Below, in pieces: positions 19,440 to 63,096 of a stretch of DNA of 64,000 bases (positions within the stretch are counted from its first letter, which is position 1; every line of letters starts with the position of its first letter). This DNA is from an uncultured Gammaproteobacteria bacterium. Its GTDB lineage: Bacteria; Patescibacteriota; Microgenomatia; UBA10105; UBA927. Below the pieces are notes generated by a model, which saw only the letters and a list, made by a program, of their open reading frames with translations, had not been told where the DNA came from and made no database searches. A program made the position numbers and the translations under genes. Location of the stretch: positions 17,877 through 81,876 of the forward strand of contig CAZVTT010000001.1 in the NCBI GenBank assembly GCA_964629685.1. Reading direction: 5' to 3'.

Positions 19440-19553
19440 GTTATCTTCCCGGTTCCTTGCGAAACAGGTATTGTCACCGCTAACGCGTTTCACTTCTGAG
19501 TTCGGAATGGGATCAGGTGGGACCACGTCGCTCCAAAGACTGGAGAACCCTAA
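19438..19553 (-). rRNA. rrf: 5S ribosomal RNA
   Basis: Minus-strand sequence GGTCCCACCTGATCCCATTCCGAACTCAGAAGTGAAACGCG matches the universal 5S core; boundaries approximate. Confidence 0.8.
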
Positions 19554-19705
19554 AGCGGTTCTCCTATCAATACACACAAACTCAACGATTACATTATATA
19601 TAAAAAGTAATTACACGTAAGGGATAATCCAATAGATTCCGTTACAACCAAAATTTCACCAGGAATCAAGAGTCCTTCACCAAATAATTGATTCAGGATT
19701 CCTTT

Positions 19706-22980
<3,275 letters not shown>

Positions 22981-23275
22981 AACAAAGGATCTGTCCTTCG
23001 CTTACGCTCAGGACCGAACCCTTGATCTTCCGGCGAAAAATTGTGCTGTAAGGGTGATCCATATGGATTACCCCTTACGATGCAACTACTTTTCAAAAAA
23101 ATTGAATTCACAAAAAAATCTACAATACAAGGAATTTCACCCTATTGTAGACAATCGTTGAGTTGTTAAAGTACTGCACTCACAATAATTGTTAAGTCGT
23201 TACATGGTTAAACTGTTAGCTGTCTTGCAACAGGTTAGCAATTTAGCCATTTAACAAAATAACAATTAATCCGTG

Positions 23276-23348
23276 TGGACCTGGGCGGAGTCGAACCGCC
23301 TACCTCTTCATTGCAAATGAAGCGTTCAACCAGGTAAACTTCAGGCCC
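23276..23348 (-). tRNA. tRNA-Ala (anticodon TGC)
   Basis: Minus-strand GGGCCTGAAGTTTACCTGGTTGAACGCTTCATTTGCAATGAAGAGGTAGGCGGTTCGACTCCGCCCAGGTCCA. G3:U70 identity pair. Anticodon loop TTTGCAA. T-arm GGTTCGACTCC. CCA not encoded. Confidence 0.9.
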
Positions 23349-23718: not shown

Positions 23719-26700
23719 TTACCGTTTCTTTTTCATGGATCTCAGAAAACGTGGCACCGAAATAACCAATCCACCGAGAAACACAACAATATTCAGTAAG
23801 ATAAACACCGTTACCATTCCGCCTCCGGAAAGCAGGCTTAAGCCGAAACTACCTCCACCGTACGATGAATATCCCATTGGTGTACCCATATTTAACGATC
23901 CTCCACCGGTAATTGCTCCCATAGCCGGATTGGCTATTCCACTGGATTTAAACTCCATAGTGTTTAACGAATTTGTACTAAACATATCCATCATGGGCGC
24001 AGTATTCGTTATGCGCAGCGGCATAACCGGCATAACCGGGGGCTGCACGGAATCCGTTTCATATCTTCCGGTACCCTGGGACTGTTGATCTAACTGCATT
24101 TGCTGAATCGAATTTACCAAAGCCAGACTAGAAGAAAATGGCGTCACAATCCCGGCCGCCTGAGCTTGACTATTAAATGCATCCAATTTCGGAATATCTG
24201 CCCAGAGATCTCCTCCGGAATATAAGCGAATACCGGCGTAAATGGCTTGTTTTACTGAAATAGCTTCCTCCGGACTCACGCTCTCCCGCTTTTCGGGCAA
24301 AGGATTAGTTGGTTTTACTATATTCGTCCCTAAACCCTGAAACGAACCCTGAGATATCGGGGAACCCTGACTCCGTAACCAAAACCACCCGTTTCTGGCC
24401 AATTCACCCTCACCTAACCGTTTGGGTAAACGATAATACGCCTCGGCTAAACTATCTACTACCGTGCCACCACTCGCAAGAAGTGACGTCGTTACGGTAT
24501 CCGGATAAGTAGGAATCTTTCCGTACACATGATAAATAAATACCGGCTGATTCAGCCGAACTCCCCGCTCGTCTGCAGAATCGGTAAAAATTGGTTGCGT
24601 ATTTCCGGTCAGCAGAATTACTGCATCATAATTCTTGGCTATTGTCTGTAAGTCCGACAGCGTCGGCGGCAATCCAAAAAAGGCTTTTGGCGGAATAAAC
24701 GAACCTTTCGTTAACGGTATTAAATCGCTTATCCCGCTATTATTGGCATAATACACATCGGCCATCCCACCCTGTAGGAACGTTTCATTGTCCTTAAACA
24801 ATTTTTCCAAGTAACCGGTTAACACCTTACTGTTTGCGGCCGAAATATCTATAACCAAGGCCAATGATTTGTCCGATCTCTGGGGCAAGACCTTAGCCTG
24901 ACCCGCACATACGTTGGTTTTATCATCAAACCCGAACGTTACCGCTACTCCCCCAAATGTCTGCGTACCGAATTTAACTTGGTCATTACAATATGCCATG
25001 CGTTGCGCGGTATCAGGAATTATGCTGTTTTCCTGATCCACTGCCAATATTTTTCCATTTACGGTAGCCGTCTGTTTCAAATTCAGCTCCGTCATATTCT
25101 GCTTTTTACTGAACGCAGGAAGCGGAATTCCAGACCAGCCTACCGGGGTCACATAGGTAAACCGTACTTTTTGGTTCCGACCATTTAACGTCGTGCGGTC
25201 ATTCGTCCCGGGAATTGGAAACACCCGTAAGCGATATTGTCTGGGTCCGACCTGTTCAATGAGCGCCGGATCACGTCTGCGTACCAATTGTTGTTCGTAT
25301 GTTCTGCGCGCGGCACCGCGAGGGGCAATTTGTCCCTGATATTCAAGCTCAGGACCTAAATCCAAATCCGTAACTACCGCGTCAGCCGGAAGCGAAAACT
25401 CATAAATTACTTCCTGCTCGGTAGAAGTAGTATTTCGATACTCCTCTTCATAAGTAACTGTCGCAAATAGACTTGTCTGTCCCGTTACGGCAGAAATCTG
25501 TCTGGTCACAATTTCTACATTTTTGGAGCTGGGTACTGTAGCTGAAATGGTCGTACCGAACGGTACGCCGTATACTGCCTGGTAATTCGTATACAGTTGT
25601 TCTGCCGTTACTCCGTAGGATTTATATACAAATGGTGATGCGAGTGAATAGAAAATTGATTCCAACCCCTTTGCCACACTCTCGGGGAGATGTAATTTAT
25701 TCCTGTACTGCGCAGACAGCCACGTATCTCCATCTTTAAACGGATACTGTGCCGAAAGCGTACTCCACTCCGTAATTGCCGATCCGACCTCTTTTTCCTT
25801 ACCTGTCAGCAGTACTGCTTTCTCCATTTTATCCGTAAACGTACCTGCATCATGGAACGTGGCCAATGCCTTGAGTAACGCGCTGGAAGAAGAGAACAGT
25901 GAACCCACAAAAACCAACGTTAACACGGCAAAAGGTATTCCCGCCCATATAACAGCTGTCCGTTTTGAATATTTCGCAGCTACTGTTTTGCCGGCCTTCC
26001 ACACTAATAGTCCCAGCAATACCGGCAATGCAAACGGTACAATACTCAGGAACAGTCCGCCAAATAAACCCAATGCGGAAAATAAAAGTGTTAATGCAGT
26101 CCCAAAAGAAAATGCCGGCGTCCTGGGATATGTCGGCAACATCAGATCGCCGGATGAGAAAGGCGGGCGAATTACCCAGCGGAATGAATCGATAGCAGCG
26201 GTAAAAATAGAAGAAACCAAAAGCGGTAGTACCAAAAGTAATAATAAGCTTAAATACCCTACCACTACAAAAGCAAACGAACGCAAGAGCAACCCCCAAC
26301 GCGATTCGCCGCTTTTTTCCTCTGAGGTTATGAATACAAGCGGCAACGATAATCCAAAAAGCCAAAACAATCCCAAAGAGGAAGGCAGACTTGGCATAAA
26401 CATTACCGGCAACGTCAGAACAACCAGAGGAACTTCACCCCAGAATAAAATTTTTCCCAGTAATCCCGGATGCGTATATAACTTCCCGCGGATTACGATA
26501 AAAAGACACACGTACGGCAACAACAATAAGATCAGACCGGCCAGCAGATTCGCGGATGGCTGTTGTACAAGCGTACTTCTTCCCACGGAATTAAACGAGG
26601 CGGATAACAGATAAGGTATAAACGTCAAACCCAAAAAAATGTTATAAATTCCGAATAATCCGTTATAAATCCAAAACAGTACCGCTGAGAATGAAAACGG

Positions 26701-27066
26701 CGGCGTAAATCCGGGAATTATTCCGGGAGTATTCCGCATATCCTCGCGTACGGGGACCTGAGTGCTTTCCGTGTGGGATATCGCTTCGATAATAACCTGA
26801 CGGGCTAGAGATGCTGCCTCGTCCTTAAAGCCGCTGGGTGTCACATCCTTTCCTTCGCTCACAAGATGTACGGTACCGCTTTGTTCATCAACTACCGGAG
26901 TAGTACTAATGGGAGCTTTGGGGTATTTTCTGGTGTATTCCGAAATAATCCGACTATGAATCAGCCCCAATATATCGGAGTGCCTTATCCCTTTTCCTAA
27001 AGCAATGTCGAGCAATGCTGCAAATTCACTTGGCATAAAACGGCCTACGTAGTGTGAGTATAACAC
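23719..27066 (-). CDS. large polytopic membrane protein with extracytoplasmic domain (possible VIT/vWA-like region) and C-terminal TM anchor
   Basis: 1115 aa. About 10 TM helices in the N-terminal 420 aa. Long soluble segment. Gly-rich tail then a final TM helix plus KKKR. The VIT/vWA resemblance (EFSLPADAVVTDLDL...; LALVIDISAANS) is tentative. Confidence 0.45.
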   Translation of the reverse strand: MLYSHYVGRFMPSEFAALLDIALGKGIRHSDILGLIHSRIISEYTRKYPKAPISTTPVVDEQSGTVHLVSEGKDVTPSGFKDEAASLARQVIIEAISHTESTQVPVREDMRNTPGIIPGFTPPFSFSAVLFWIYNGLFGIYNIFLGLTFIPYLLSASFNSVGRSTLVQQPSANLLAGLILLLLPYVCLFIVIRGKLYTHPGLLGKILFWGEVPLVVLTLPVMFMPSLPSSLGLFWLFGLSLPLVFITSEEKSGESRWGLLLRSFAFVVVGYLSLLLLLVLPLLVSSIFTAAIDSFRWVIRPPFSSGDLMLPTYPRTPAFSFGTALTLLFSALGLFGGLFLSIVPFALPVLLGLLVWKAGKTVAAKYSKRTAVIWAGIPFAVLTLVFVGSLFSSSSALLKALATFHDAGTFTDKMEKAVLLTGKEKEVGSAITEWSTLSAQYPFKDGDTWLSAQYRNKLHLPESVAKGLESIFYSLASPFVYKSYGVTAEQLYTNYQAVYGVPFGTTISATVPSSKNVEIVTRQISAVTGQTSLFATVTYEEEYRNTTSTEQEVIYEFSLPADAVVTDLDLGPELEYQGQIAPRGAARRTYEQQLVRRRDPALIEQVGPRQYRLRVFPIPGTNDRTTLNGRNQKVRFTYVTPVGWSGIPLPAFSKKQNMTELNLKQTATVNGKILAVDQENSIIPDTAQRMAYCNDQVKFGTQTFGGVAVTFGFDDKTNVCAGQAKVLPQRSDKSLALVIDISAANSKVLTGYLEKLFKDNETFLQGGMADVYYANNSGISDLIPLTKGSFIPPKAFFGLPPTLSDLQTIAKNYDAVILLTGNTQPIFTDSADERGVRLNQPVFIYHVYGKIPTYPDTVTTSLLASGGTVVDSLAEAYYRLPKRLGEGELARNGWFWLRSQGSPISQGSFQGLGTNIVKPTNPLPEKRESVSPEEAISVKQAIYAGIRLYSGGDLWADIPKLDAFNSQAQAAGIVTPFSSSLALVNSIQQMQLDQQSQGTGRYETDSVQPPVMPVMPLRITNTAPMMDMFSTNSLNTMEFKSSGIANPAMGAITGGGSLNMGTPMGYSSYGGGSFGLSLLSGGGMVTVFILLNIVVFLGGLVISVPRFLRSMKKKR

Positions 27067-48026: not shown

Positions 48027-48051
48027 AATCCGCTTGGTTGCGGGTTTTTTT
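48027..48051 (+). terminator. intrinsic terminator-like hairpin plus T7 on the + strand at the end of a 400 bp ORF-free region
   Basis: AATCCGCTTGGTTGCGGGTTTTTTT. Confidence 0.4.
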
Positions 48052-48069: not shown

Positions 48070-48098
48070 TTGACACAGGGTAGTATAAGTAATATTAT
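48070..48098 (+). promoter_or_regulatory. sigma70-like promoter for the 48110 operon; transcript predicted near-leaderless
   Basis: TTGACA, 17 nt spacer, TATTAT. -10 ends 11 nt before the ATG. Confidence 0.4.
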
Positions 48099-48109
48099 AG
48101 GTTTAATAT

Positions 48110-50503
48110 ATGACGGAACGTGACCTTCCCAATACCGACGGCAACGAACAGGGCGTAAAAAACCCTAGCCTACGAAATCTAGGTCGACGTTTCATCGACA
48201 CAATTCGGGAGACGCATCAGGATAGTCAAACTGGTGCTGATCAATTTGCTGCGGCATTAGGCAATGTAGCAGACAGAATGTTTGCCAAAGCGGAAGACTA
48301 TGAAGGGGTTGAGGCGATCTCTCCCAGTAAACGCTGGATGGTTACCGGAATAGTAGGAGCAATCAGGCAGGTTGGAGAATTTTTCGCAAACGCGAGTGAA
48401 GACGCACAGCAGGAAGAATCCACACCGAGTGCGCTCGATAACTTTTTAAATAGACCTATCCCCATGAGAGTTGCCCGTGTTTACGCGCCAATCGCTGCAG
48501 GATTTACGATGCTATTCGGACCACGCATTTTCGGCGGACTGCATACCGCTGAAGCGCAGGAAGCTCCCATTAATTTCGGTTTCTCGAATGTGGTACCTGA
48601 TATTACAATCACCGCTGATGAACGAACTGCTTTAGCAGTATTACGCGGAGAAGTTACACCTGGAGTGCGCATGCCTGTTCCACTCGGAGTGCAACCGGAA
48701 TATAGCTACACCTCTACCGGTGCAATCGTTAATTTAACCAATTTTGTTGATATTCCTAATAGTAGTACCGATTTTGCCCGTCTTATGACCGGTACCAGCA
48801 GGCGGGAATTTACCATTCCGGGATTTGCAGACAACGCAACCCTCCCCGTCCGCAATATGTTTCACTTGCTTGGTGAAATCGAATCACAAAATACCGAACA
48901 GTGGAGTTCAAGAACCGACGACGCTCCTATTCCCAATAGATTTGCTTCTTTAGTATTAAAAGCTAAAGACAACGATGCAGGAACAACCACTTCTGTTACT
49001 GCCGAAATTGTCGTCGGTGACCAACCAATTACATTAAATTTCCGTCGGGACGGCGAAAATAGAGTACTTAACTTTACACCGGGATCTCGATTAACACTTA
49101 ATCCGGAAGATGGTACCTTCCGCTATATTAAAGCTTCTCTGGCGAACGGATTTAACGTCGATACTGTAGATGTTAATACTACTATGCGGGAAGCGTTGGC
49201 GAACTTTACTCTGGTCGGGAGTAATCAGCCGGCAACGGTAGATGCACCGATAAATACCCCGGCACTTATCGAACAATTTAACAATACCTTGCAGTCAATC
49301 GTCATTTCCAGTCCTGAAGGGATTGGATCATTAAGCTTTCGACGGCTACCGACTACTGTCGAATCCGGGACACGGTTCCGGAGTTCACCGGATCGTTCAG
49401 GCGGAGATGCAAATGTTGTAGGTACATACGTACCTGCTCAGGGAGATGTATTATCGCCCCAGCAACCGGTAACAGCAGCAGACTTTATGGGTTCAGATGC
49501 ATATTGGCAACTCCGTCGCGCCTATCCGGGTCTCGGCGTTGATCAGAACGGATTAATGCAAGTAACGATTGATGCGTATGATGAAAACAATCCCGACAGA
49601 TACTGGCATTTATTTACGAACGAAGTTGAAGACACACTCAATTTAGTCTGGTTCAGAAGTGACAAGGTAAATGTTAACCCCAGCAGTGCTGTGGTTCAGG
49701 AAATCCCCACGCCGGTTGCCGTGGCCATGGCACCGGAACTTTCCGCTTCAGGTGCACTGGGTATGGCTTATTCCGAAGAAAGATTATATGGTGGTGGACA
49801 AGTTTATACAATTGCATTTAACGGCAATAACATATATGAACCTCCGCTTGAAGATCCGGCAGTTACCGATATATTAGAAATTCCACAAACAAACGCGCAA
49901 TGGCTTTCTACTCCCCGGGACATAATGTATACAGAATCCGGACAAGAACGATTCGCCCCCCTTGGTTTAATCGGATACTATGAAATTAACAACAATATTT
50001 TTGCAATATTACCTATAAAGGTAACCAGCGTTCTTCGGAGACCTTATGCAGGAAGAGGTGGTGCTGGAGATAGGGTGTTGACCTTCGAAATCCCGACCGC
50101 TGGTGGCACAATTTCAGTAGCCCAATCACTCAGTGACCGCATTAGAAACGATCCGGGTCAATCACCGACGAGGAAACCCGATGCAATCTTTACGCCGAAC
50201 GCTCAAATTATTGAACGATTATTAAACTCAACAATCGACACACCACTTCCTATCGGTGATGTACTTCCATTTGTTACAAGTAACCCCAATAATCCCGAAG
50301 GTTTCGAACCGGAAGAAGAAATTACATACCTGCAACAAAGTGCAGAAAGTGATCGTATGATCTACGTCTCAATGATGGTTTCTGCTCAGGGAAGCCGATT
50401 GCCAAATGATATTCTTAGAATTGTAGAAAACCAACCACCCAGAGTTTCCGGGGTACAGGTTGATACATCGTTGGAAATGACCGGCTATCTCCGCTTCCGT
50501 TAA
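48110..50503 (+). CDS. large hypothetical protein (797 aa), one internal hydrophobic helix, no recognised domain
   Basis: 2.4 kb ORF, first of three co-directional genes. Confidence 0.55.
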   Translation: MTERDLPNTDGNEQGVKNPSLRNLGRRFIDTIRETHQDSQTGADQFAAALGNVADRMFAKAEDYEGVEAISPSKRWMVTGIVGAIRQVGEFFANASEDAQQEESTPSALDNFLNRPIPMRVARVYAPIAAGFTMLFGPRIFGGLHTAEAQEAPINFGFSNVVPDITITADERTALAVLRGEVTPGVRMPVPLGVQPEYSYTSTGAIVNLTNFVDIPNSSTDFARLMTGTSRREFTIPGFADNATLPVRNMFHLLGEIESQNTEQWSSRTDDAPIPNRFASLVLKAKDNDAGTTTSVTAEIVVGDQPITLNFRRDGENRVLNFTPGSRLTLNPEDGTFRYIKASLANGFNVDTVDVNTTMREALANFTLVGSNQPATVDAPINTPALIEQFNNTLQSIVISSPEGIGSLSFRRLPTTVESGTRFRSSPDRSGGDANVVGTYVPAQGDVLSPQQPVTAADFMGSDAYWQLRRAYPGLGVDQNGLMQVTIDAYDENNPDRYWHLFTNEVEDTLNLVWFRSDKVNVNPSSAVVQEIPTPVAVAMAPELSASGALGMAYSEERLYGGGQVYTIAFNGNNIYEPPLEDPAVTDILEIPQTNAQWLSTPRDIMYTESGQERFAPLGLIGYYEINNNIFAILPIKVTSVLRRPYAGRGGAGDRVLTFEIPTAGGTISVAQSLSDRIRNDPGQSPTRKPDAIFTPNAQIIERLLNSTIDTPLPIGDVLPFVTSNPNNPEGFEPEEEITYLQQSAESDRMIYVSMMVSAQGSRLPNDILRIVENQPPRVSGVQVDTSLEMTGYLRFR

Positions 50504-50590
50504 GAATTTTAAACCCATTCCAATCCATTCTTTGATTGACAATTCCATTCAGTTTAGTACGATGAATATAGGTGTAGTGTTACCGTATTT

Positions 50591-51205
50591 ATGCAGTTTA
50601 CCTTTCGCAATAGATCAGCGTATTTGTTAGTGGTTCTTCTCGGCATAGTTGTATTAATTGTCGCTATCCTGCTTGTTTATACCCAATCACAACTCGCGCT
50701 AACCCAAAAGGTTACCACACCCCCGGCTTCCGATTTAGCACCAGCCGATACGAATTCACCACTACAAACAGTGAAATTCGCAAACGGACGGGCATCATCA
50801 AGCTTGGCTGTAGAATTTTTGGAAAAACCACGTCTCTTAGGAAAAACATATATCGCCAAAGCCACAATACCCATTGGGGAACAGTCGACAAAATTTGACG
50901 TAATTATCGGCGGTTCTGATGGACAATCAGCCAGTGGAACCTGTGATTACATCAAAAAACAAAGTATGTTTAGCGGAAACAGTTCATATTTCCATGAACC
51001 AACCAGCCAATTAGCCGATAAAATTAAGCCCGGCGTTAAAGCACTACTGCAAATTAATCATGCTAACGCTACCGAAGAAGAATGGAAACGAAATCCCGGA
51101 TTAATAGCAATGGAACGTATTTTTACAGCAGCAAAAGATAATAAGTCACTTACTGGTATTACGAGCATAGTCCCGGATGAATTCTGTATCGCGAATCCTT
51201 TATGA
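50591..51205 (+). CDS. membrane-anchored hypothetical protein (204 aa)
   Basis: N-terminal TM; stop overlaps the next start. Confidence 0.5.
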   Translation: MQFTFRNRSAYLLVVLLGIVVLIVAILLVYTQSQLALTQKVTTPPASDLAPADTNSPLQTVKFANGRASSSLAVEFLEKPRLLGKTYIAKATIPIGEQSTKFDVIIGGSDGQSASGTCDYIKKQSMFSGNSSYFHEPTSQLADKIKPGVKALLQINHANATEEEWKRNPGLIAMERIFTAAKDNKSLTGITSIVPDEFCIANPL

Positions 51206-53499
51206 AACGTATCCTTTTCTATATTTTGGGATTTACTGCACTAAGTGTAGGATATTTCATTTATCCCAGCCCGGTTCAAGCTGAAGTATGTTGGACACAG
51301 CGGGTAATCAACCAACATCGGTGCACCTCAAATAACCCGCTGCAGAATGGTTGTATCAGATGGAGGGCTCAAGCAATTTATAATGGTGGATGTTCGGCTG
51401 AAAGTACATCTGGGTCAGGTGCTGCTAAATCCAGTTGTGAAGCCGCTTGCAGCGGTCCATATGCCGGAGATGCATGCTATGGAGCATATTGTGTCGACTA
51501 CGGACCAACTACCACTCCCTATTACACATGTGAAGTTGAAAATTTTGTCGCCTCCTGCAATCCTGAACCAGCCTGTAATGCTATCGGAAATATCGTAAAT
51601 TGCAATGTCAATTATAATGGCTCAGCGTGTACTAATAATTCCCAAACATTAACGTACGGATGTTGGGGTCCGGGAAATCCAACTGGCATACCGGGTAACT
51701 GTGGCAATGGCGTTTGTGGATCTGGTGAAACTTGTACAAACTGTCCTTCCGACTGTGGTGCATGCTGCGGAAATGGTAATTGCGGAGGAACCGAAAGTTG
51801 CTCTACGTGTGCTGCAGACTGTGGAAGCTGTCCACCGACGTGTGGAAACGGAAGCTGTGAAGGAACGGAAAGTTGCAGCACGTGCTCTCAGGACTGCGGA
51901 AGTTGCTGGCAGACACCGACACCCACCAATCCCCCGGCAAATACTCCGACTCCATGGTGTGGCAACGGGTCTTGCAGTAGTGGTGAAAATTGCACGAATT
52001 GTGCGGTTGACTGTGGCAATTGTCCTGTAGATACGCCGACACCTACGCCCACCCCTGCAGTTGGCCAGTGCTCTGCTCCCGCACCGAGAGATCCTCCTAC
52101 TTCACAATGTGCAGCCTGTCCCAGTTGTAACGGGAATATTACCTGGTCATGGGATACTGTTGCCGGAGCGCTGGAATACGAACTGGCAATACTCGATAGT
52201 TCTAACGCATTGGTAGTTGATTTCGGCTGGCAAAGTGCAGCAACATATGATTGCGATTCTGATAGTATTTGCAGCTACACCACACCGCTCCCTCCGGGAA
52301 CATATAAGTCCAGACTCAGGGCGAGAGGTTCATGCACCATTTCATCCTTTTCATATTCTAACGAATACACACTAAACATCTGCTCAGGAACGATCAGCGC
52401 AATCGGGAAAGAGATAGACTCCAGCGCAACAAGCTGTGATGACGTAAATCTCAGTAATGATTATGTATCTCCAATCACGTTTGATTTGTCTCCGAGCGTA
52501 CTACCCGGTTCCCAAATTCAGACGGGATCAGATTATGTTACATGGACCGATGTTAATCCGGGAACGTATACACTTTCCGTTTCCCCTCCTTCCGGATACG
52601 TGGTCAAATTCATGTGCTGGCAGCGATCTTTCACATCGCCGCTTACCGGCGACGGTCCGTCCGCAAGCCTGGTAAATGGAGAATCCCTCACTTGGTATGG
52701 CATCGGACTCTCACTGGGGACTCCGTGGGTCCAAACAGAAGGCGGCGATGTCTTAGTTGCCACGAATATTCAGGCACACTTGGCAGATACGGTTGTTCCG
52801 CGCGAATTTAATACCGCCGGAACTGCCGGCGGGTATCCGGGTGTAGTAAGTTACGGCACCTCATACGATTTTAATCCCCTCTCAACCGATACCGGTAGCA
52901 ACTTGGTTTCAGCCAACGGGTGGCTGGTCCGTGAATCAAGTCTGCCGATGTATTCCAAGGACTGGTATAACACTTTCGCACAGAAGTATGACTTAAGCGG
53001 GAACTCGCAAAGCTATACGGGACCGGCAGAACCGGCAAGCAGTGCTGTGCCGTATTATGTAAACGGTAACACCAGCGTCGGGAACTGGACAGTAGGAAAC
53101 GGTGAGAATATAGTGCTCTTCGTAAACGGCGATCTCTCGATTACCGGCACTATTACCACGTCCGGGACCGGATTTGTGGCCTTCATTGTCAGCGGAGATA
53201 TAAGTGTCGCCTCAACCGTAGGGGTAGCATACACCTCAAGTGTTCCCTCACTTGAAGGACTCTATGTTACCAACGGCACATTCTCAACCGGCACCAGTCA
53301 GCTGGGTGTACAACGCCTGGTTACACACGGAACATTTATAGCAAACGCATTTCAGTTACAACGTGATCTGGCGACTGCAGGCGGGGGTCAAAACCATACG
53401 ACGGCATCCGAACTCTTTACGTACGACCCGCAACTTATGTTCAATATGCCGGATGAATTCCGTGATATCCGGCTTAAATGGGAAGAAACCGCTCCGTAG
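51202..53499 (+). CDS. secreted Cys-rich repeat protein (765 aa), hypothetical surface protein
   Basis: Signal peptide. Five tandem about 24-aa modules CGNGxCxxGExCxxCxxDCGxC (DNA about 51700..52023) separated by TPTP linkers. Beta-rich C-terminal 450 aa. Confidence 0.55.
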   Translation: MKRILFYILGFTALSVGYFIYPSPVQAEVCWTQRVINQHRCTSNNPLQNGCIRWRAQAIYNGGCSAESTSGSGAAKSSCEAACSGPYAGDACYGAYCVDYGPTTTPYYTCEVENFVASCNPEPACNAIGNIVNCNVNYNGSACTNNSQTLTYGCWGPGNPTGIPGNCGNGVCGSGETCTNCPSDCGACCGNGNCGGTESCSTCAADCGSCPPTCGNGSCEGTESCSTCSQDCGSCWQTPTPTNPPANTPTPWCGNGSCSSGENCTNCAVDCGNCPVDTPTPTPTPAVGQCSAPAPRDPPTSQCAACPSCNGNITWSWDTVAGALEYELAILDSSNALVVDFGWQSAATYDCDSDSICSYTTPLPPGTYKSRLRARGSCTISSFSYSNEYTLNICSGTISAIGKEIDSSATSCDDVNLSNDYVSPITFDLSPSVLPGSQIQTGSDYVTWTDVNPGTYTLSVSPPSGYVVKFMCWQRSFTSPLTGDGPSASLVNGESLTWYGIGLSLGTPWVQTEGGDVLVATNIQAHLADTVVPREFNTAGTAGGYPGVVSYGTSYDFNPLSTDTGSNLVSANGWLVRESSLPMYSKDWYNTFAQKYDLSGNSQSYTGPAEPASSAVPYYVNGNTSVGNWTVGNGENIVLFVNGDLSITGTITTSGTGFVAFIVSGDISVASTVGVAYTSSVPSLEGLYVTNGTFSTGTSQLGVQRLVTHGTFIANAFQLQRDLATAGGGQNHTTASELFTYDPQLMFNMPDEFRDIRLKWEETAP

Positions 53500-54568: not shown

Positions 54569-55933
54569 TCAAAAAATTCGCAATTGTTCTTTGGATGCAT
54601 CCACGAGTGGTTTTTCTTCATCATCACGCCAAAGTTTTACTACACCGAATACCCCATCATATCCCGGATCTATCACGATATCTCCACGCCGGACCTTGGT
54701 GATACCTGCTCCTATTCTTTCCCCTGCTATGGTTTTTATCTCTGCTACAGAAGCTTTGAGCAACACAGTAAACTCACCCGCAAAATGATCAACCAATGCC
54801 TGATACGGTTTCTGCACTTTGGGACTCGTAACGGGCGAACCGAGACATTCCGCAATAATTTCCTGCAGCGGTACCAACATCACGTATGGTGGACGCTCCG
54901 GGTAGCGCTTACTGTAAAACACGCTAACTTCCTCCGCTAACCCATATATACTGTTCGTTGCTTTCATTTCCAAATCAAGTTCGCCTTCACTCCGTGCAGC
55001 TAACTCCTCAACCCGCTGCAATACTCCTTGTGTTAACGGCTTCCCGCATACCGGACAAGTTGTCCCGTTTGCTTTGGTATCTTCCGGATTCCAGCGGATA
55101 TTGCAACTCCGGTGACCGGTAAAATGATACTTCCCTTCTTCCGGATAAAATTCGATGGTATACGCAATAGAATTTTTGGAACTATCTTTCCTGAGAAACG
55201 GAGCGGATATGGCTTCGTAAAGCGCTGTATACGTCATTTCCCGTAAATCAAATACTGTAGCCTCCCTACCTAACTTAGGACCGCTATGCGCATCGGAAAA
55301 AGAAACGATCGCCCGATGATCGAGTTCTGCTATTTGCCAGTTCATGGCCGGATTACTTGATAATCCGGTTTCTATAGCATAAATACGATCAGCATACGGC
55401 CCAAAGGCCTCGGTTAAACTATCAAACCCGGACATACTCCCGTACAAAGAAAACCATGGTGTCCAGGCATGCGCAGGAATAACGAGAGCTTTGGGTTCGA
55501 TGGTAAAAACCAGTTCTGCCACCTGAATATTGGTCAACCCGATAATAGGACGGCCATCGGACAACAGATTACAACCTTGCTTTGTCATTTCCTTATTAAT
55601 CTTCATAGCCGAATCCAACGTCGGTACCCAAATCAACGTGTGCACCCGTCGTCCTTTTCCATTTTGGGAATAAATACAGCTTACCTCCGTTGCCAGGAGA
55701 TAGAACGGTGAATCTTGTTCTGCTGCTTCCTGCTTTAGCTTAAGAAAACCGGTTCCCAATTCCACCAAATGCTCCTGAATTTCTTTCATCCAGAGCGGAT
55801 GTGTCCAGTCCCCTGTAGCAATAAGCCCAATCCCTTTCCGTTTGGCCCACAGGGATAAATTGGGAATAGTCATTTCTTTGGAAACGGCCCTCGCAAAACG
55901 GGAATGAAGTTGTAAATCAGCAATTACGTACAT
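54569..55933 (-). CDS. endonuclease Q (EndoQ/TIGR00375)-like PHP-domain nuclease with C4 zinc finger
   Basis: N-terminus MYVIADLQLHSRFARAVSKEMT...ATGD resembles the archaeal EndoQ N-terminus. Zn ribbon CPVCGKPL...; recalled from memory, not aligned. Confidence 0.5.
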   Translation of the reverse strand: MYVIADLQLHSRFARAVSKEMTIPNLSLWAKRKGIGLIATGDWTHPLWMKEIQEHLVELGTGFLKLKQEAAEQDSPFYLLATEVSCIYSQNGKGRRVHTLIWVPTLDSAMKINKEMTKQGCNLLSDGRPIIGLTNIQVAELVFTIEPKALVIPAHAWTPWFSLYGSMSGFDSLTEAFGPYADRIYAIETGLSSNPAMNWQIAELDHRAIVSFSDAHSGPKLGREATVFDLREMTYTALYEAISAPFLRKDSSKNSIAYTIEFYPEEGKYHFTGHRSCNIRWNPEDTKANGTTCPVCGKPLTQGVLQRVEELAARSEGELDLEMKATNSIYGLAEEVSVFYSKRYPERPPYVMLVPLQEIIAECLGSPVTSPKVQKPYQALVDHFAGEFTVLLKASVAEIKTIAGERIGAGITKVRRGDIVIDPGYDGVFGVVKLWRDDEEKPLVDASKEQLRIF

Positions 55934-56005: not shown

Positions 56006-56824
56006 TTAACCGAATAAATCCTGAACGAGTTGACGAATCTGTTGTTCAAACTGCTTAATGGGTATTGGTTTCGATTTCGGCTTACCGTACCAGTGTCCAC
56101 CCATAATATACCCAGGCACGGACCGGGGAGCTTTACCGGTAAAAAGAATAGAGAACGTCACTTTGGTGTAAGTAGAAACCAACTTGAGTTTCCGTTCGTG
56201 CCGAAACCGTCGCAACGAAAACACATACAATGTCTCCCGCAACATATCCATGGGAATCCCCAAAGCAAAAATCCGGTTACTGAAATCATAATCCTCTCCC
56301 CAGGCGAGAGATTCATCGTATCCCTTTACCGTTGTAAAGACATCACGACGTACGCATGCCAGCGGACCGGGCGCTACCGGACGTTTAATCCTGATTGCTC
56401 CTTCATACAGCAAATTAGCCAACAATGTCACAATAGCATCACCGTTTTCCTCAGTATCCGGACGACACCAGGTCGTAAATAACTTAGGATGTTTAGCCCG
56501 GATAAAATGATCAAGTCTATCAAAAAAATACGGTAACAGAACGCTGTCGGCATCGATAAACAGTAACCATTCCCCACTGGCACGGGTTGCGCCTAAATTA
56601 CGCTGTTTCGGTAAGCCGGGCGGATTACTATCGATTATCTGAAGTCCGGGAAGCTTCGGTATGAATGTTTTGGCCAACTTCACCGTTTGATCCTTCGAGT
56701 GGCCATCCACTACAATAACCTCTACGTCCTTACGTTTTATGACAGCCAAAGAATGTAAAAGTCTTGGTAAAAACTTTTCCTCGTTCAGGGTAGGAATAAT
56801 CACTGAATACCGTATTTTTTTCAT
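56006..56824 (-). CDS. family 2 glycosyltransferase
   Basis: YSVIIPTLNEE...VIVVDGHSKDQT. Start set at the internal Met (MKKIRY) because the extended ORF overlaps the divergent gene. Confidence 0.65.
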   Translation of the reverse strand: MKKIRYSVIIPTLNEEKFLPRLLHSLAVIKRKDVEVIVVDGHSKDQTVKLAKTFIPKLPGLQIIDSNPPGLPKQRNLGATRASGEWLLFIDADSVLLPYFFDRLDHFIRAKHPKLFTTWCRPDTEENGDAIVTLLANLLYEGAIRIKRPVAPGPLACVRRDVFTTVKGYDESLAWGEDYDFSNRIFALGIPMDMLRETLYVFSLRRFRHERKLKLVSTYTKVTFSILFTGKAPRSVPGYIMGGHWYGKPKSKPIPIKQFEQQIRQLVQDLFG

Positions 56825-56890
56825 AGGTGGATGCATTATACGGCATTCTATGGCCCAGCGCCCAGCTTCGTATATAATAAACCAAACAAT

Positions 56891-57646
56891 ATGACACAAA
56901 AACCTAAAATATCCGTTGTAATCCCGGCATATAACGAAGAGCATTATCTTCCTACGTGTTTGGAGAGTCTAAAAAAGCAAACATTTACCGATTTCGAAAT
57001 AGTGGTAGTAGACAACAACTCGACGGATAAAACAGCCGACATAGCACGTGCATTCGGCGCCCGCGTGGTGAAGGAAACAATACAGGGAATGACACCGGCA
57101 CGGGAGCGGGGGTTCCGTGAAGCCAGGGCAGATATAATAGCAAGGACGGACGCCGACTCAACCGTCTATCCTGATTGGCTTGAACAAATAGATAAAGCCT
57201 TTCATAAATACCCGCAAGCCGTGGCTGTTACCGGATCTTTCCGTTCTCCTGACCCCGATGTACCGAATCGTTTTTTTGAGTATTATATCCGGCTTTATAC
57301 CCGTTTTACCCGGATGCTAACCGGTCACATGCATTTGCACGGACCGAATATGGCGCTCAGAAAATCTGCCTGGGAAAAAATACATGTCCATATGGATGAT
57401 ACGTTGGTACATGAAGATGTAGATCTCGCCTGTCATCTGGCCGAGGTAGGAGAAATAATCTTTGTACCGGAAATAATCACCACGTACTCATTACGAAGAC
57501 TTAAACAACGGTTTTGGTTTACGCTTGGAGAATATTTTGTCCGCTATATCCGTACCATCCGACTACACGGCCATGCCCACAGTCTGATAAGTATCAGGCG
57601 GCGTCTAAGTATGACTTCACGTGCGCGACGGCCAACTCGGGAGTAA
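56891..57646 (+). CDS. family 2 glycosyltransferase
   Basis: ISVVIPAYNEE...VVVDNNSTDKT; DAD motif. The track start 56831 is possible, but ATG 56891 fits the GT2 N-terminus. Confidence 0.7.
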   Translation: MTQKPKISVVIPAYNEEHYLPTCLESLKKQTFTDFEIVVVDNNSTDKTADIARAFGARVVKETIQGMTPARERGFREARADIIARTDADSTVYPDWLEQIDKAFHKYPQAVAVTGSFRSPDPDVPNRFFEYYIRLYTRFTRMLTGHMHLHGPNMALRKSAWEKIHVHMDDTLVHEDVDLACHLAEVGEIIFVPEIITTYSLRRLKQRFWFTLGEYFVRYIRTIRLHGHAHSLISIRRRLSMTSRARRPTRE

Positions 57647-58504: not shown

Positions 58505-60259
58505 CTAGTTTTTATTGACTGTAGCGCTTAGCTGATTCTGATACATTTGTGTTAACTCCGTTACGGTCGTGGCTTGTTCGGGATTTTTATCATGCCTTTC
58601 GCGCACTAAACGCGGAAAGCGCACGGCATAACCTGCTCCGTGTGAAGGGGATTTTGTAAGGTCATCACCGGCAATTTCCACCACAAGCATCGGTTTTAGC
58701 CAGACATCCGGCTCCAGCATGGCACTAACTTCAGGATATTCTGACGGGCGCACGGTAGTTTTATGCGTATTAAAATCCTTCACCAATGCTTTCCACTGCT
58801 CATCACTAACTCCCGTGCCGACTTTTGTTACGGAAAGGAATGTGTCTCCGGAACGGACACCTACCAAAAATGCTCCTATCCCGAATGTCGACCGTTTACC
58901 TTCCCCGCGGTAATACCCCATAACCACGGTATCTATCGTATCCGTTAACTTACCGGTTTTCCCTTCCTCTTCCTTAAACTTTACCCAGCTGTATCCCCGC
59001 CTTCCCGGTTCATAGGGACTTTGCCACTTTTTAATAACCACCCCTTCCAATCCTGCTTTTATTTGTTGATCGTGATATGAGCGGATAGTAGCGGCGCTAT
59101 CTGTCACGATTTGTGGAGAAATCTCAAGCACGGTCCCCGGCTTAATAACGGCAGAAAGCTGCTCCCGTCTTTGCGATAAGGGAAGGGAAAGCAAATCCTT
59201 ACCGTCCCGGTATACCATGTCAAAAACAAAAAATTTTAACGGTACGGCAGCCTGCGTTTCAGCAATGTTATGTTTCCGCTTCCGGGTGGTGGTCGCCTGA
59301 AATGAAGCAATGGTACCCGTTTTCGGATCTATTCCCACAGCTTCACTATCCAAAATAAGTTCGTCCGCGCGTACCTGAGACGCAATCGTATGCAGTTCCG
59401 GAAACATTCCCGTCGTATTTTCCAGATTTCGTGAATACGTTCTGATTGTGTCCTGCGGACCGGAAAATCCTTTCTTCCGATAATGGATCTGGACCCTAAC
59501 CCCATCATACTTCGGTTCCACTGACACTGTCCCCATTTTCTCAATCATCTCATCCGCAGTAGGCAAACGCTGACACAAGGATGCCAAAATAGGTGCACCA
59601 ATCCGGGCATGAACATGAGTGATTCCATCCAACCCTTTCGATTTAACCGCTTCGGCTATCAGTCCAATATCCGGCAACACGCTGTAGGCGGCTTCCAATT
59701 GATCCCGCAACGTTTTGTCTCCCGTTATCATCCACGATAAGGCATCTAGAATGGTCATATCCGAAAATCCTAACCGTAACTTATCCAACGGAATCCGCAC
59801 GAGGTATCGGGCCGCTAACGGATCGACATGTAGCAACAAATCGGATAATAAACCCACTTTTTTGTCTTGGGATCCTTCACCGGTTATATGCGCTATATCC
59901 GATAATTTGGCAAATACGTCGCCCACCGAGAGCCCGGATTTATGCGGTATAAATTTTCCCTGATGGTATATTGCTTCCGCAGCGGTACCCAGGTCGCCGA
60001 CCTTCCGGAATTCCGACAGTACATGCTGGGTGTCAACCGTATACGCCTGCGCAATAGCCCGCACCATAAACTTGTCGGCTATACCGAATTCTATAGCTTC
60101 ATAAAGCGGAACTACCCTCCCCTGCAGCAGATAACAAATCTTACCTATTTCCCCGGCAGTAGCCTGTCTAAAAATTCCCGCCAATTGTTCGGTCATAGCC
60201 AAACGGGAATTTGTTTGTTCCAGCACTTGAAAATATTGAGCGAGGCGTTCGAACGTCAT
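58505..60259 (-). CDS. ATP-dependent DNA ligase (Lig1/archaeal-type)
   Basis: Adenylation motif EPKYDGVR; motifs III/IV/V recognisable; about 580 aa three-domain length. Confidence 0.85.
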   Translation of the reverse strand: MTFERLAQYFQVLEQTNSRLAMTEQLAGIFRQATAGEIGKICYLLQGRVVPLYEAIEFGIADKFMVRAIAQAYTVDTQHVLSEFRKVGDLGTAAEAIYHQGKFIPHKSGLSVGDVFAKLSDIAHITGEGSQDKKVGLLSDLLLHVDPLAARYLVRIPLDKLRLGFSDMTILDALSWMITGDKTLRDQLEAAYSVLPDIGLIAEAVKSKGLDGITHVHARIGAPILASLCQRLPTADEMIEKMGTVSVEPKYDGVRVQIHYRKKGFSGPQDTIRTYSRNLENTTGMFPELHTIASQVRADELILDSEAVGIDPKTGTIASFQATTTRKRKHNIAETQAAVPLKFFVFDMVYRDGKDLLSLPLSQRREQLSAVIKPGTVLEISPQIVTDSAATIRSYHDQQIKAGLEGVVIKKWQSPYEPGRRGYSWVKFKEEEGKTGKLTDTIDTVVMGYYRGEGKRSTFGIGAFLVGVRSGDTFLSVTKVGTGVSDEQWKALVKDFNTHKTTVRPSEYPEVSAMLEPDVWLKPMLVVEIAGDDLTKSPSHGAGYAVRFPRLVRERHDKNPEQATTVTELTQMYQNQLSATVNKN

Positions 60260-60464: not shown

Positions 60465-61541
60465 TTAAGTCTTCAGAATATATCGGACACCTTTAGTCGT
60501 ACCATCCTTTTTAACTATACCTTTTTTAATCAGGTCCTTCAATTCACGCAGCACTGTATCTTCCGAAATCATCGGAAATAATTCAAAAAACGATTTATTC
60601 TGGAGGAAACCATTCTCCTGTATGAATTCCATTATTTTTATTTGCCGTTCTGACAATGTAAGCTGTTGGCCTCCAAGTGTTTTTTTAATCTTTAAATCCG
60701 TAGATATGGATTTCACTTTTTCCTTAACCCGATTTAACTCGATTGCCAGTCCTTCGGAAAAATATTCCAGCCACCGGGTAAGATTTCCATCTAACTTAGC
60801 CACACTCTGTAGTGCTTCATAGTATTGGACGGGTTCCCGATCATAATGTTCTTCCAAAGAAAAAAACCGTTTTACATCATAGCCACCCTGAAACAACATC
60901 AGAATGGCAATAGCCCGTGCTACCCGCCCATTTCCGTCGAGGAAAGGATGAATCCGCACCAGTTCATAATGCACGATTCCGGCTTTCAGAACCGGATGTA
61001 CGTGTTCCTCGTTGGTATTATTTACCCAGTGAACAAAATCCGCCATCAGAAACTGTACTTCCAGTGCGGGAGGAGGACGAAATGTAATTTCCCCGGTCTG
61101 ACTATTTCTCACAACTACAGAGGCAGTTCGGTACTGTCCGACGGCATGGTCGGGCAGAATCCGGTGCACGGTAAGGGCATGAACATGTTTGACTACTTCT
61201 TCGGTAATATCGGGCTTTTCATACTCAGTTATAAACTTTAAAACGTTCCGATAATTCAACACTTCCTGAATATCACGTTCCCGCGCTACCACGTTGCCTC
61301 CCGAAAGCACTTTATCGGCTTCCGTATAATTCAAGCCGTTCCCTTCCAGATGTGTGCCGTGATAAGCAGAACGCACGAGAGCTTCTTCCCGGAATTTTGC
61401 TTCCCAAGCGGGAACGAGTGGTGCATTTTCGATTATTTCCTTAGCTGCTTCAATTCTCCCGATGGTGCGGAGAATAGTATTGGTAATAGCAAATGTTGGT
61501 TCGGTCATACCGTATTCCTCAATGACAATAGATAGCTTCAC
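60465..61541 (-). CDS. Fic family protein (AMPylase-type) with C-terminal winged-helix
   Basis: HPFLDGNGRVARA Fic motif. Confidence 0.8.
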   Translation of the reverse strand: MKLSIVIEEYGMTEPTFAITNTILRTIGRIEAAKEIIENAPLVPAWEAKFREEALVRSAYHGTHLEGNGLNYTEADKVLSGGNVVARERDIQEVLNYRNVLKFITEYEKPDITEEVVKHVHALTVHRILPDHAVGQYRTASVVVRNSQTGEITFRPPPALEVQFLMADFVHWVNNTNEEHVHPVLKAGIVHYELVRIHPFLDGNGRVARAIAILMLFQGGYDVKRFFSLEEHYDREPVQYYEALQSVAKLDGNLTRWLEYFSEGLAIELNRVKEKVKSISTDLKIKKTLGGQQLTLSERQIKIMEFIQENGFLQNKSFFELFPMISEDTVLRELKDLIKKGIVKKDGTTKGVRYILKT

Positions 61542-61671: not shown

Positions 61672-63096
61672 ATGGCATTTGGAGCAGAACTTGCTGATTC
61701 AATACCTCTATTCGGAACAGTACGCCATGTTCTGGCAAGTCTGCTTTTGTCGTATTTCCGTTTTTGGGCACGACTGGCAATAAACATGCATACACCGACG
61801 GTGATCGGCATTGCGGGCGCAGTCGGAAAATCTACCGCCAGACAAGCCCTTTACGCTGTTTTAAAAGGATATAAACCGACCAAAATGATCGAAGGCAACT
61901 CCGAAACCGGCATTCCTTTGGGTATACTGGGGTTCTTCCCTGTTACCTATGGCGCATCCGAATGGCTCTCCTTTGTAATACTGGCACCATTCAGGCTTCA
62001 ATACCTAAAACTTACGGATTATCTTTTGGTAGAAATGGGAATAGATGGTCCTTTCCCACCAAAAAATATGGAATACCTCTTAACTATTATTAAACCGCAT
62101 GTTGCCATACTGCTTAATGAAAGTCCTGCTCATGTGGGAAATTATGAAAAAGCACTACCGGGCAAAGGCATTGGTCTGTCCGACAGTGAAAAACTCGACC
62201 GCATAATGAAACTCATCACCCGGGATGACGGGAAAATTATTACCGACTCACAGTGCCGGCTGGGAATTACCAACGCAGATGATCCCTACATTCAATCACT
62301 CATCATTAAACCGAATGAAAATACGTTAGTACCGATATATACTTTCGGATCAGGAAAGGAAAATACCGTATCATACGGCGGACATACTATCGCAAATGAA
62401 CAGACAACATTCACGTATCTGTTAAATCAACCGCAATCCTCAACTGAAGTTACCATTACCTTTAAAAATATTGCCTTGCCGCAGGAAACCCAATCTCTTT
62501 TTGCAGCCGTCATTTTGGCTGCTCAGCATATTGGCGTCCCCATGGAACACATAGCCAAATCGCTGGAACAGGGATTAACCCTTCCACCGGGAAGAGGCAG
62601 TATATTCCGCGGCATCAAAGGATCAGAAATTATTGATTCCACCTATAACGCCTCCAGTGCGTCCGTACTTTCGTATCTCGGTTACCTTAAAACACTCAAA
62701 GATCAATCCAGCCGTCCGACCGTGTTCCTGTTTGGCGATATGAAAGAGCTAGGTCAGGCTGGTGCAATAGAACACGAGAAAATAGCTTCACACATGATCG
62801 GAGTCGTAGATTATCTGTATTGCGTGGGTGAACTTACGCAACAATACGTACTTCCCTTCGCTCATAAACACAAAAATTCATTTAAAGATATTCGCTGGTT
62901 CAGCACCAGCCGGGAAGCCGGCATGGCTATGGAAGAACTACTCCCGGAGTCTGCATTAGTACTTGCCAAAGGTTCTCAATTACTGGAAGAGGCTCTTAAA
63001 TTCATATTGGCAGACCCTGCAGATTCAAAAAGACTTTGCCGCCAGGACGCGTTCTGGAAACAGGCCAAATTTACGAGGGGAAGCTGGGTGGAATAG
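61672..63096 (+). CDS. murF: Mur ligase family protein, MurF-like
   Basis: P-loop IGIAGAVGKST, then GNSETGIPL; DSTYNAS block. 3' end overlaps the convergent RDD gene by 26 bp. Confidence 0.55.
   Translation: MAFGAELADSIPLFGTVRHVLASLLLSYFRFWARLAINMHTPTVIGIAGAVGKSTARQALYAVLKGYKPTKMIEGNSETGIPLGILGFFPVTYGASEWLSFVILAPFRLQYLKLTDYLLVEMGIDGPFPPKNMEYLLTIIKPHVAILLNESPAHVGNYEKALPGKGIGLSDSEKLDRIMKLITRDDGKIITDSQCRLGITNADDPYIQSLIIKPNENTLVPIYTFGSGKENTVSYGGHTIANEQTTFTYLLNQPQSSTEVTITFKNIALPQETQSLFAAVILAAQHIGVPMEHIAKSLEQGLTLPPGRGSIFRGIKGSEIIDSTYNASSASVLSYLGYLKTLKDQSSRPTVFLFGDMKELGQAGAIEHEKIASHMIGVVDYLYCVGELTQQYVLPFAHKHKNSFKDIRWFSTSREAGMAMEELLPESALVLAKGSQLLEEALKFILADPADSKRLCRQDAFWKQAKFTRGSWVE

Follow-up and report, generated by a model that had tools for sequence, protein, structure and literature searches.

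A recurrent three-gene cell-envelope cassette of Microgenomates-type bacteria and its candidate role as a surface-displayed binding module

Introduction

The Candidate Phyla Radiation (CPR, or Patescibacteria) makes up a large share of bacterial diversity, and the protein families specific to its lineages are mostly non-cytoplasmic and of obscure function. One question then is what such proteins might do together where their genes lie side by side. We consider this question for three adjacent genes, here called A, B and C, in a stretch of 64,000 nucleotides (the window) from contig CAZVTT010000001.1 (assembly GCA_964629685.1, positions 17,877 to 81,876 of the forward strand), assigned to the Microgenomatia. 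A preliminary description, made from the letters of the window, had seen here a single operon of giant surface-type proteins matched to no known system and looking like a dedicated cell-surface apparatus. The reading that we prefer, to which we give a probability of about one half, is that of a cassette for the cell envelope, specific to a lineage of Microgenomates-type CPR bacteria (the Gottesmanbacteria and their relatives), in which three extracytoplasmic proteins probably form a surface-displayed binding module. As far as profile libraries and the literature show, the cassette is undescribed as a recurrent unit.

A gene order kept among different neighbours

The recurrence of the cassette was followed through its third gene. 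Pattern scans for the C-terminal domain of C returned 14 genome loci, with a five-sequence alignment, and 36 metagenome loci; once redundancy is removed, the 54 loci with a C-like gene leave 42 C proteins, of which 29 have at least 2.5 kb of upstream DNA. The family occurs mainly in metagenome-assembled genomes (MAGs) of Candidatus Gottesmanbacteria and unclassified Patescibacteria, together with a few that go under the labels Chloroflexi, Anaerolineae or 'Gammaproteobacteria'. The contig of the window measures 953,690 bp, in keeping with a CPR genome.

Among the two same-strand open reading frames (ORFs) upstream of C, 21 of the 29 loci have one for a protein of 150-345 amino acids (aa) with an N-terminal transmembrane (TM) segment, against a background of 9.5% per gene (binomial P = 2e-10), and in 18 of the 29 a protein of at least 300 aa is also found there. 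The usual order is A-B-C and sometimes B-A-C, with B and C overlapping or abutting in many loci. In L004 and L005 the trio has flanking genes entirely different from those of the window, from which we conclude that it moves or persists as a unit; the conservation of gene order, which the preliminary description had proposed as a check on its reading, thus extends to distant genomes with different neighbours. The type of B, moreover, tracks the type of the N-terminal domain of C (the window type being found together in 4/4 loci), and the A types are shuffled among the B types. In the closest relative, L003, the protein-level identities of A, B and C are 40%, 44% and 65%, and those of twelve flanking genes 67-96%; that A and B diverge so much faster than their flanks fits with proteins exposed at the cell surface.

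Protein C as a modular protein of known folds

Protein C, with 48 Cys in total, is laid out in the order given in Table 1. As the preliminary description had it, the protein starts with a signal peptide, which is of the Sec type, and a hydrophobic N-terminus is kept across the family. The Cys-rich domain that follows is poorly modelled by AlphaFold2 (AF2), with a predicted local distance difference test (pLDDT) score of 30-45. Next come the Cys modules, with the consensus CGNGxC(x5)ExCxxCxxDCGxC, 22 residues and six Cys, at C residues 167-188, 189-210, 214-235 and 253-274. The five modules of 24 residues and eight Cys announced previously were therefore miscounted, and the Thr-Pro linkers said to join them survive only in part: modules 1 and 2 abut, three residues lie between modules 2 and 3, and richness in Thr and Pro is confined to the stretch that joins module 3 to module 4 and to the segment that follows module 4. 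At the DNA level the copies show only about 76% column identity and a tandem-repeat finder reports no array, so that the Cys repeats are of old date and it is the protein sequence that is maintained; for want of an array, the idea of a recent expansion of the repeat was rejected.

No match to the Cys module was obtained in Pfam or NCBIfam (E <= 1) or in the PDB, which holds no solved structure of it. About 60 proteins from Myxococcota, Patescibacteria and DPANN archaea share only this region with C, in otherwise unrelated architectures, some of them DsbA-like, so that the six-Cys module is widespread and promiscuous and not specific to the cassette. Two of these proteins, P0042 and P0063, are DsbA/thioredoxin-domain proteins annotated as 'protein-disulfide isomerase' (1158-1238 aa), and in P0017 the module is combined with a prepilin N_methyl domain; the module thus travels among many kinds of secreted protein. 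The Myxococcus cysteine-rich repeat (Pfam DUF4215, PF13948; TIGR02232) likewise consists of short tandem Cys-rich modules in large secreted proteins, and several of the proteins that share the window's module carry PF13948, but the module of the window itself has no PF13948 or NCBIfam match at E <= 1.

The C-terminal half of C is rich in beta structure, as had been noticed before. According to the AF2 model it is made of Ig-like domains and a triangular right-handed beta-solenoid of the ice-binding protein (IBP)/ComZ type, and the final domain bears the family signature W-V-Q-T-x-G-G ... W-x-E-x-A-P, the latter motif lying at the very C-terminus. Scans of A, B and C against Pfam, NCBIfam, PHROGs and PADLOC gave nothing above threshold, sequence and profile searches of the PDB, for which the A and B families, the C-terminal domain and the Cys repeat served as queries, gave no match, and public sources hold no names for the three proteins. 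The earlier statements that they lack recognisable enzymatic domains can accordingly be widened, since no domain of any kind reaches threshold, whereas the statement that they match no known system holds for profiles and not for structure, C being built of known folds. At E <= 1, hmmscan of C returned only DUF7305, Y_Y_Y and DUF2572, with the same result for 14 family members. The DUF7305 match covers C residues 618-696 with 21.5 bits (E 2.4e-4), below the gathering threshold of 27 bits, and matches at E <= 0.01 were found in 7/14 family members (best 3.3e-5); a distant relationship between the two families is possible on the strength of these scores. Literature searches on DUF7305 and on Gottesmanbacteria together with S-layers found no papers. 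A phage origin was also considered and rejected, the search of viral folds in BFVD having given only generic Fn3/Ig matches.

Which known systems, then, does C resemble? The sequence features that define DUF3494, DUF7305, LPXTG pilins and SLH proteins do not admit C to any of these groups, and it looks rather like a modular adhesin of known folds. With the DUF3494 or type-1 IBPs (FfIBP 4NU2, ColAFP 3WP9, AnpIBP 7BWX, SfIBP 6BG8) its model shares the triangular right-handed beta-solenoid, but these proteins match PF11999, as C does not, and have a long helix packed on the solenoid that is not confidently modelled in C, where the helices of the solenoid part are short (565-568, 582-585, 588-595) and lie in a low-confidence part of the model; C has in addition a conserved tail of about 45 residues ending in W-x-E-x-A-P. 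That C could be a true ice-binding or antifreeze protein, as its predicted solenoid would allow, is extremely unlikely, because a Pfam DUF3494 match is lacking even at E <= 1, members of the family come largely from MAGs of groundwater and sediment Patescibacteria, and ComZ has the same fold without binding ice (PMC6561018).

A parallel could also be drawn with the tip minor pilins ComZ of Thermus thermophilus and PilX of cyanobacteria, which share the IBP-like solenoid with the model of C. C might then be an apical solenoid on a non-canonical type IV pilus, and B, with its N-terminal helix and small disulfide-bonded domain, a divergent pilin-like subunit, the whole serving DNA capture or attachment. 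We regard this as very unlikely. In ComZ and PilX the solenoid is an insertion that separates the last strands of a pilin fold, whereas that of C is C-terminal, follows two Ig-like domains and comes without a pilin fold; C has a Sec signal peptide instead of a prepilin leader; none of A, B and C matches N_methyl (PF07963); the prepilin motif G[FMILVY][TS][LIVM][ILVM]E occurs in no ORF of the window or of 57 loci; and no pil genes or other type IV pilus genes were seen beside the cassette. Lacking prepilin leader, N_methyl match, pilin motif and inserted solenoid alike, the pilus explanation fails on its defining features.

The Ig-like domains point in another direction, being modelled as of the CnaA/CnaB or SdrD-B type that C would share with Gram-positive sortase-assembled pilins and MSCRAMMs (BcpA, Streptococcus sanguinis pilins, SdrD, UafA). 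Unlike these, C has no LPXTG-type sorting signal, C-terminal TM segment or hydrophobic tail and ends in RLKWEETAP; no sortase was seen near the cassette; and the stalk of C would additionally contain the small six-Cys modules.

Proteins A and B

B is a bitopic protein and membrane-anchored, as anticipated, the anchor being a strong TM helix that takes up about residues 10-32 in the N-terminal part. Since Arg residues precede this helix, the protein is probably oriented N-in by the positive-inside rule. Its predicted ectodomain of about 170 aa contains the only two Cys of B, C118 and C199, both invariant. Homologues of B occupy the same position in L003, L004 and L005, and a remote link joins this group to that of L011, L032 and L045 (hhalign probability 83%).

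A is acidic (pI 4.6), devoid of Cys, and has 1.1% Lys and much Arg. Residues 1-118 form a conserved N-terminal extension, predicted to be helical, followed at residues 119-149 by a signal-peptide-like segment (M119-RVAR, a hydrophobic stretch and AEA/QEA, the motif AEAQEAP being invariant in close relatives) and then by about 650 residues of mixed beta and alpha structure. The hydrophobic helix ascribed to A does exist as a segment at about residues 124-144, but it is weak (Kyte-Doolittle below 1.3) and, with the conserved AEA/QEA directly after it, resembles more the h-region of a long signal peptide. The sequence GRRFIDT at residues 25-31 has no hydrophobic stretch after it, so that A does not qualify as a Tat substrate. 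An exhaustive HMMER search found only three relatives of A among 1.84 billion representative proteins, which on this evidence makes A nearly an ORFan, and word-index searches for homologues of A and B gave nothing beyond near-identical or close relatives.

At other loci the A position is filled by proteins of several kinds. About seven have RRxFL Tat-type motifs and about three have lipoboxes, and in the cA0 group there is one TM segment, an internal one; the A-position proteins with such features are accordingly exported or membrane-anchored. Tat-type motifs (TRRGFLK, SRRNFLKF, TRREFLKL, some with a lipobox) occur in the A-position proteins of six loci (Table 1), which implies that proteins are exported in the folded state by the bacteria of these CPR-type genomes; the protein L004_D has a sub-threshold TAT_signal match. 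When 20 proteins of the A position and 10 of the B position, taken from other loci, were scanned with Pfam, one weak TAT_signal match was all that came up. A-like genes may also be duplicated. An A-like paralogue follows C in L004 (7299-14651; 628 and 649 aa, 24% identical) and in L017 (7471-12019; 354 and 358 aa, 82% identical), and two tandem A-position copies stand upstream of C in L039 (571-3859). Taken together, A, B and C all look extracytoplasmic from their sequence features.

The properties of A invite comparison with an S-layer. By analogy with SlaA and SlaB of Sulfolobus, A, being large, acidic, Cys-free and fast-evolving, with a strong promoter and a short leader, would be the abundant protein of an envelope lattice, and B and/or C its anchor. 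We consider this rather improbable. The only conserved component is C and not A, and the A-position proteins, which vary in length between 300 and 1100 aa and in topology between Tat, lipoprotein and internal TM, are hard to fit to one lattice protein. Very low Lys with high Arg, as in A, is atypical for S-layer proteins. The cassette shows no sequence homology to the SlaA/SlaB S-layers of Sulfolobales, the anchoring topology of which also differs, B having an N-terminal TM helix and no evident coiled coil, and neither an SLH domain nor another anchoring domain of the kind that marks SLH-type S-layer proteins was found in A, B or C (Pfam, NCBIfam).

Transcriptional organisation

The three co-directional genes were found as described before, as ORFs of 797, 204 and 765 aa on the plus strand, although the label 'giant' is too strong for proteins with predicted masses given as 80-87 kDa. 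The promoter-like site in front of A, P_A, had been taken for a strong σ70-like promoter with an almost leaderless start, and this has stood up well: it agrees with the consensus at 11/12 positions, is one of only five sites that reach at least 11/12 when the two strands of the 64 kb window are taken together, and is conserved in L003. When the upstream regions of the window and L003 are aligned, the islands of conservation are the terminator-like hairpin with its T-run, the -35 element, the block TATAAGTnATATTATAGGTT and the ATG, in surrounding intergenic DNA that has diverged; within the hairpin the stem arms and the T-run are kept and the loop differs. The hairpin may insulate the cassette against upstream transcription, and the leader of A, if transcription starts where P_A would place it, is predicted to be very short.

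The spacer between A and B, of 87 bp, contains a second promoter-like site, P_BC, in which TTGAC and GTTTAGTACGATG are kept in L003 and the remaining spacer has diverged. The stop of B and the start of C share 4 bp (ATGA). In view of two promoter-like sites, both conserved in L003, the earlier picture of a single operon driven from one promoter has to be given up; the unit probably consists of A with its own promoter and of a translationally coupled B-C pair with a second one. Read-through from A into B-C is nevertheless possible, no terminator being predicted between A and B.

Table 1. Positions of features in the window and, where a locus is named, in related loci
Feature	Position	Strand	Remarks
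Terminator-like hairpin and T-run	48027..48046	+	7-bp stem, 4 GC pairs; directly 5' of P_A
P_A, promoter-like	48070..48098	+	TTGACA-17-TATTAT, 11/12 positions; ends 11 nt before the ATG of A
Gene A	48110-50503	+	797-aa ORF
P_BC, promoter-like	50536..50563	+	TTGACA, 16 nt, TACGAT; 10/12; in the A-B gap
Gene B	50591-51205	+	204-aa ORF, predicted bitopic membrane protein
Gene C	51202-53499	+	765-aa ORF
C, predicted Sec-type signal peptide	51202..51282	+	residues 1-27, predicted cleavage VQA/EV
C, N-terminal Cys-rich domain	51283..51699	+	residues 28-166, 14 Cys, motif VCWTQRVINQHRC
C, Cys modules	51700..52023	+	four copies, the third and fourth joined by a Thr/Pro linker
C, two Ig-like beta-sandwich domains (modelled)	52132..52716	+	residues ~311-392 and ~395-505
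C, conserved C-terminal domain	52717..53499	+	residues ~506-765, triangular beta-solenoid (modelled) and tail
Two glycosyltransferase family 2 (GT2) genes	56006-57646		window, downstream of the cassette
Mur-ligase-like gene	61672-63096		window, downstream of the cassette
A-position genes with Tat-type motifs	L004 12702-14651; L014 6637-8628; L028 3093-4043; L032 2902-4752; L054 565-1497; L057 479-1444		six loci
Wzm/Wzt-like exporter and Bac_transf beside the cassette	L005, L009, L010, L011, L013, L014, L015, L019, L021, L032, L040, L042, L045		13 loci

Envelope-gene context and other features of the window

In 13 loci (Table 1) the cassette stands directly downstream of a divergent Wzm/Wzt-like ABC exporter (ABC2_membrane and ABC_tran) and a Bac_transf phosphoglycosyl transferase. 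Six of these 13 have a gene for an uncharacterised 460-aa protein downstream of the cassette, followed, where inspected (L009, L010, L014), by a gene for a MurD-like ligase. The window contains no Bac_transf, and its cassette, like those of L003 and L004, has no Wzm/Wzt and Bac_transf genes beside it; the GT2 and Mur-ligase-like genes of the window lie 5-10 kb downstream of the cassette.

This context bears on the orientation of C. The solenoid could bind the cell's own envelope glycopolymer, the product of the neighbouring Wzm/Wzt and Bac_transf pathway, much as SLH or cell-wall-binding (CWB) domains do, which would leave the N-terminal Cys-rich part as the exposed and functional one. The solenoid end of C is indeed conserved and the N-terminal end variable, the usual pattern of conserved anchor and variable exposed domain, and a subfamily of PilX solenoids that has its gene in a polysaccharide (hps) locus is proposed to recognise exopolysaccharide (EPS) (bioRxiv 10.64898/2026.02.12.705559). 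Yet the polysaccharide export and initiation genes that adjoin the cassette in 13 loci are missing beside it in the window, L003 and L004, and the Cys modules, Thr/Pro linkers and Ig-like domains resemble a stalk and not a functional head, so that we hold a wall anchor of this orientation to be unlikely.

Several other features of the window deserve mention. A ribosomal region on the minus strand (19428-23348) comprises a 5S rRNA (19428-19544), a 23S rRNA (19706-22981) and a tRNA-Ala(TGC) (23275-23348). The 23S gene measures 3276 nt against a model of 2925 nt and probably contains insertions of about 350 nt, and, the next upstream feature being a protein gene, the 16S appears unlinked within the window. 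At 23719-27066 (minus strand) there is an ORF for another large and probably extracytoplasmic protein, of 1115 aa, residues 524-625 of which form a VIT (vault inter-alpha-trypsin) domain; the sequence TTGACA-17-TACAAT at about 23691 lies beyond the 3' end of this ORF and not upstream of its start. A second large uncharacterised protein, of 983 aa, is encoded at 9607-12558 (plus strand) and has no Pfam match at E <= 0.001. Nearer to the cassette there are genes for a 454-aa protein (54569-55933, minus strand), likewise without a Pfam match at E <= 0.001, although its orthologue in L002 has MJ0043_C in precomputed Pfam annotation, for a three-domain ATP-dependent DNA ligase of 584 aa (58505-60259, minus strand) and for a Fic-domain protein (60465-61541).

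Discussion

How might three such proteins work together? In the module that we envisage, C would be secreted by the Sec pathway and, on oxidation, become a disulfide-rich rod made of its N-terminal Cys-rich domain, the four Cys modules, the Thr/Pro linkers and the two Ig-like domains. Of these, modules, linkers and Ig-like domains would span the wall as a stalk, with the C-terminal solenoid as binding head. B, made in step with C by virtue of its own promoter and the ATGA coupling, would be the membrane tether of C or assemble it there, most likely via the co-varying N-terminal domain of C, and A, a fast-evolving, acidic, Cys-free exported protein, would be an exposed or variable partner. The physical complex of A, B and C, the placing of the solenoid at the distal end of C and the nature of the ligand, be it a glycan, a second cell or the wall polymer of the cell itself, are all things that we infer, and adhesion or host attachment in an episymbiont, the role suggested in the preliminary description, is pure inference. 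The literature speaks for the proposal. CPR bacteria encode MdbA/VKOR for extracytoplasmic disulfides, the families of proteins that show enrichment in Microgenomates are mostly non-cytoplasmic hypotheticals (bioRxiv 10.1101/335083), and IBP-like solenoids are apical adhesive domains in ComZ and PilX (PMC6561018; bioRxiv 10.64898/2026.02.12.705559).

A number of points weigh against this proposal. The small TM protein is absent upstream of C in 8/29 loci. Sequence clustering divides the proteins of the B position into at least 9 groups and those of the A position into at least 12, and in hhalign comparisons among the B clusters and among the A clusters everything besides the link of B to L011, L032 and L045 remained below 45%, so that to speak of the 'same three genes' is to speak of position, size and topology and not of proven homology. 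Part of the synteny could reflect slow genome rearrangement within one lineage, given that unrelated downstream genes are syntenic too. The AF2 model of C is poor at residues 20-300 and 527-585, and that of A, made from 4 sequences, is unusable (pLDDT 39). Pfam and NCBIfam recognise no wall-anchoring domain in A, B or C, and little is known of what IBP-like solenoids do apart from binding ice. The evidence for a joint action of the three proteins, finally, lies only in the position of their genes; of the earlier claim of a dedicated cell-surface apparatus we retain the extracytoplasmic features and the conserved arrangement.

Pressed to their end, these points would reduce the cassette to three independent secreted or membrane proteins that are adjacent by descent in one lineage and have no joint function. 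The lack of demonstrable homology between most A- and B-position proteins, the synteny of unrelated downstream genes in several loci and the conserved promoter-like site that A has to itself would all be in keeping with this. Mere adjacency nevertheless strikes us as quite improbable when enrichment of the small protein with an N-terminal TM helix upstream of C reaches the extent found (21/29, P = 2e-10), when genes B and C share ATGA in the window and in many loci likewise overlap or abut, and when the trio is kept with different flanks in L004 and L005.

A bolder and more specific form of the binding module can also be imagined, one that we rate as rather unlikely as it stands. It would be a hitherto undescribed, pilus-independent surface apparatus of the Microgenomates, in which B is the tether, a disulfide-stapled stalk of C presents a solenoid of the ComZ/PilX type, and a hypervariable, sometimes duplicated A gives specificity, the task being the capture of extracellular DNA or polymers or the attachment to partner cells. 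By analogy, and with the same rather slender likelihood, such an apparatus would be a 'split', Sec/Tat-exported counterpart of the pilus tip complex.

What the cassette as a surface-displayed binding module means for the biology of these bacteria can be put in three steps. Whatever the function of the cassette, the analysis documents an unannotated, widespread six-Cys module and, as modelled, an IBP-like fold in a context other than ice. If the three proteins do form one complex, they would represent a surface module of a new type, suited to Gram-positive-like envelopes without sortase, LPXTG or SLH anchoring. And since the ways in which CPR cells contact surfaces, hosts and nutrients are largely obscure, the cassette offers a recurrent and testable candidate for one of them.

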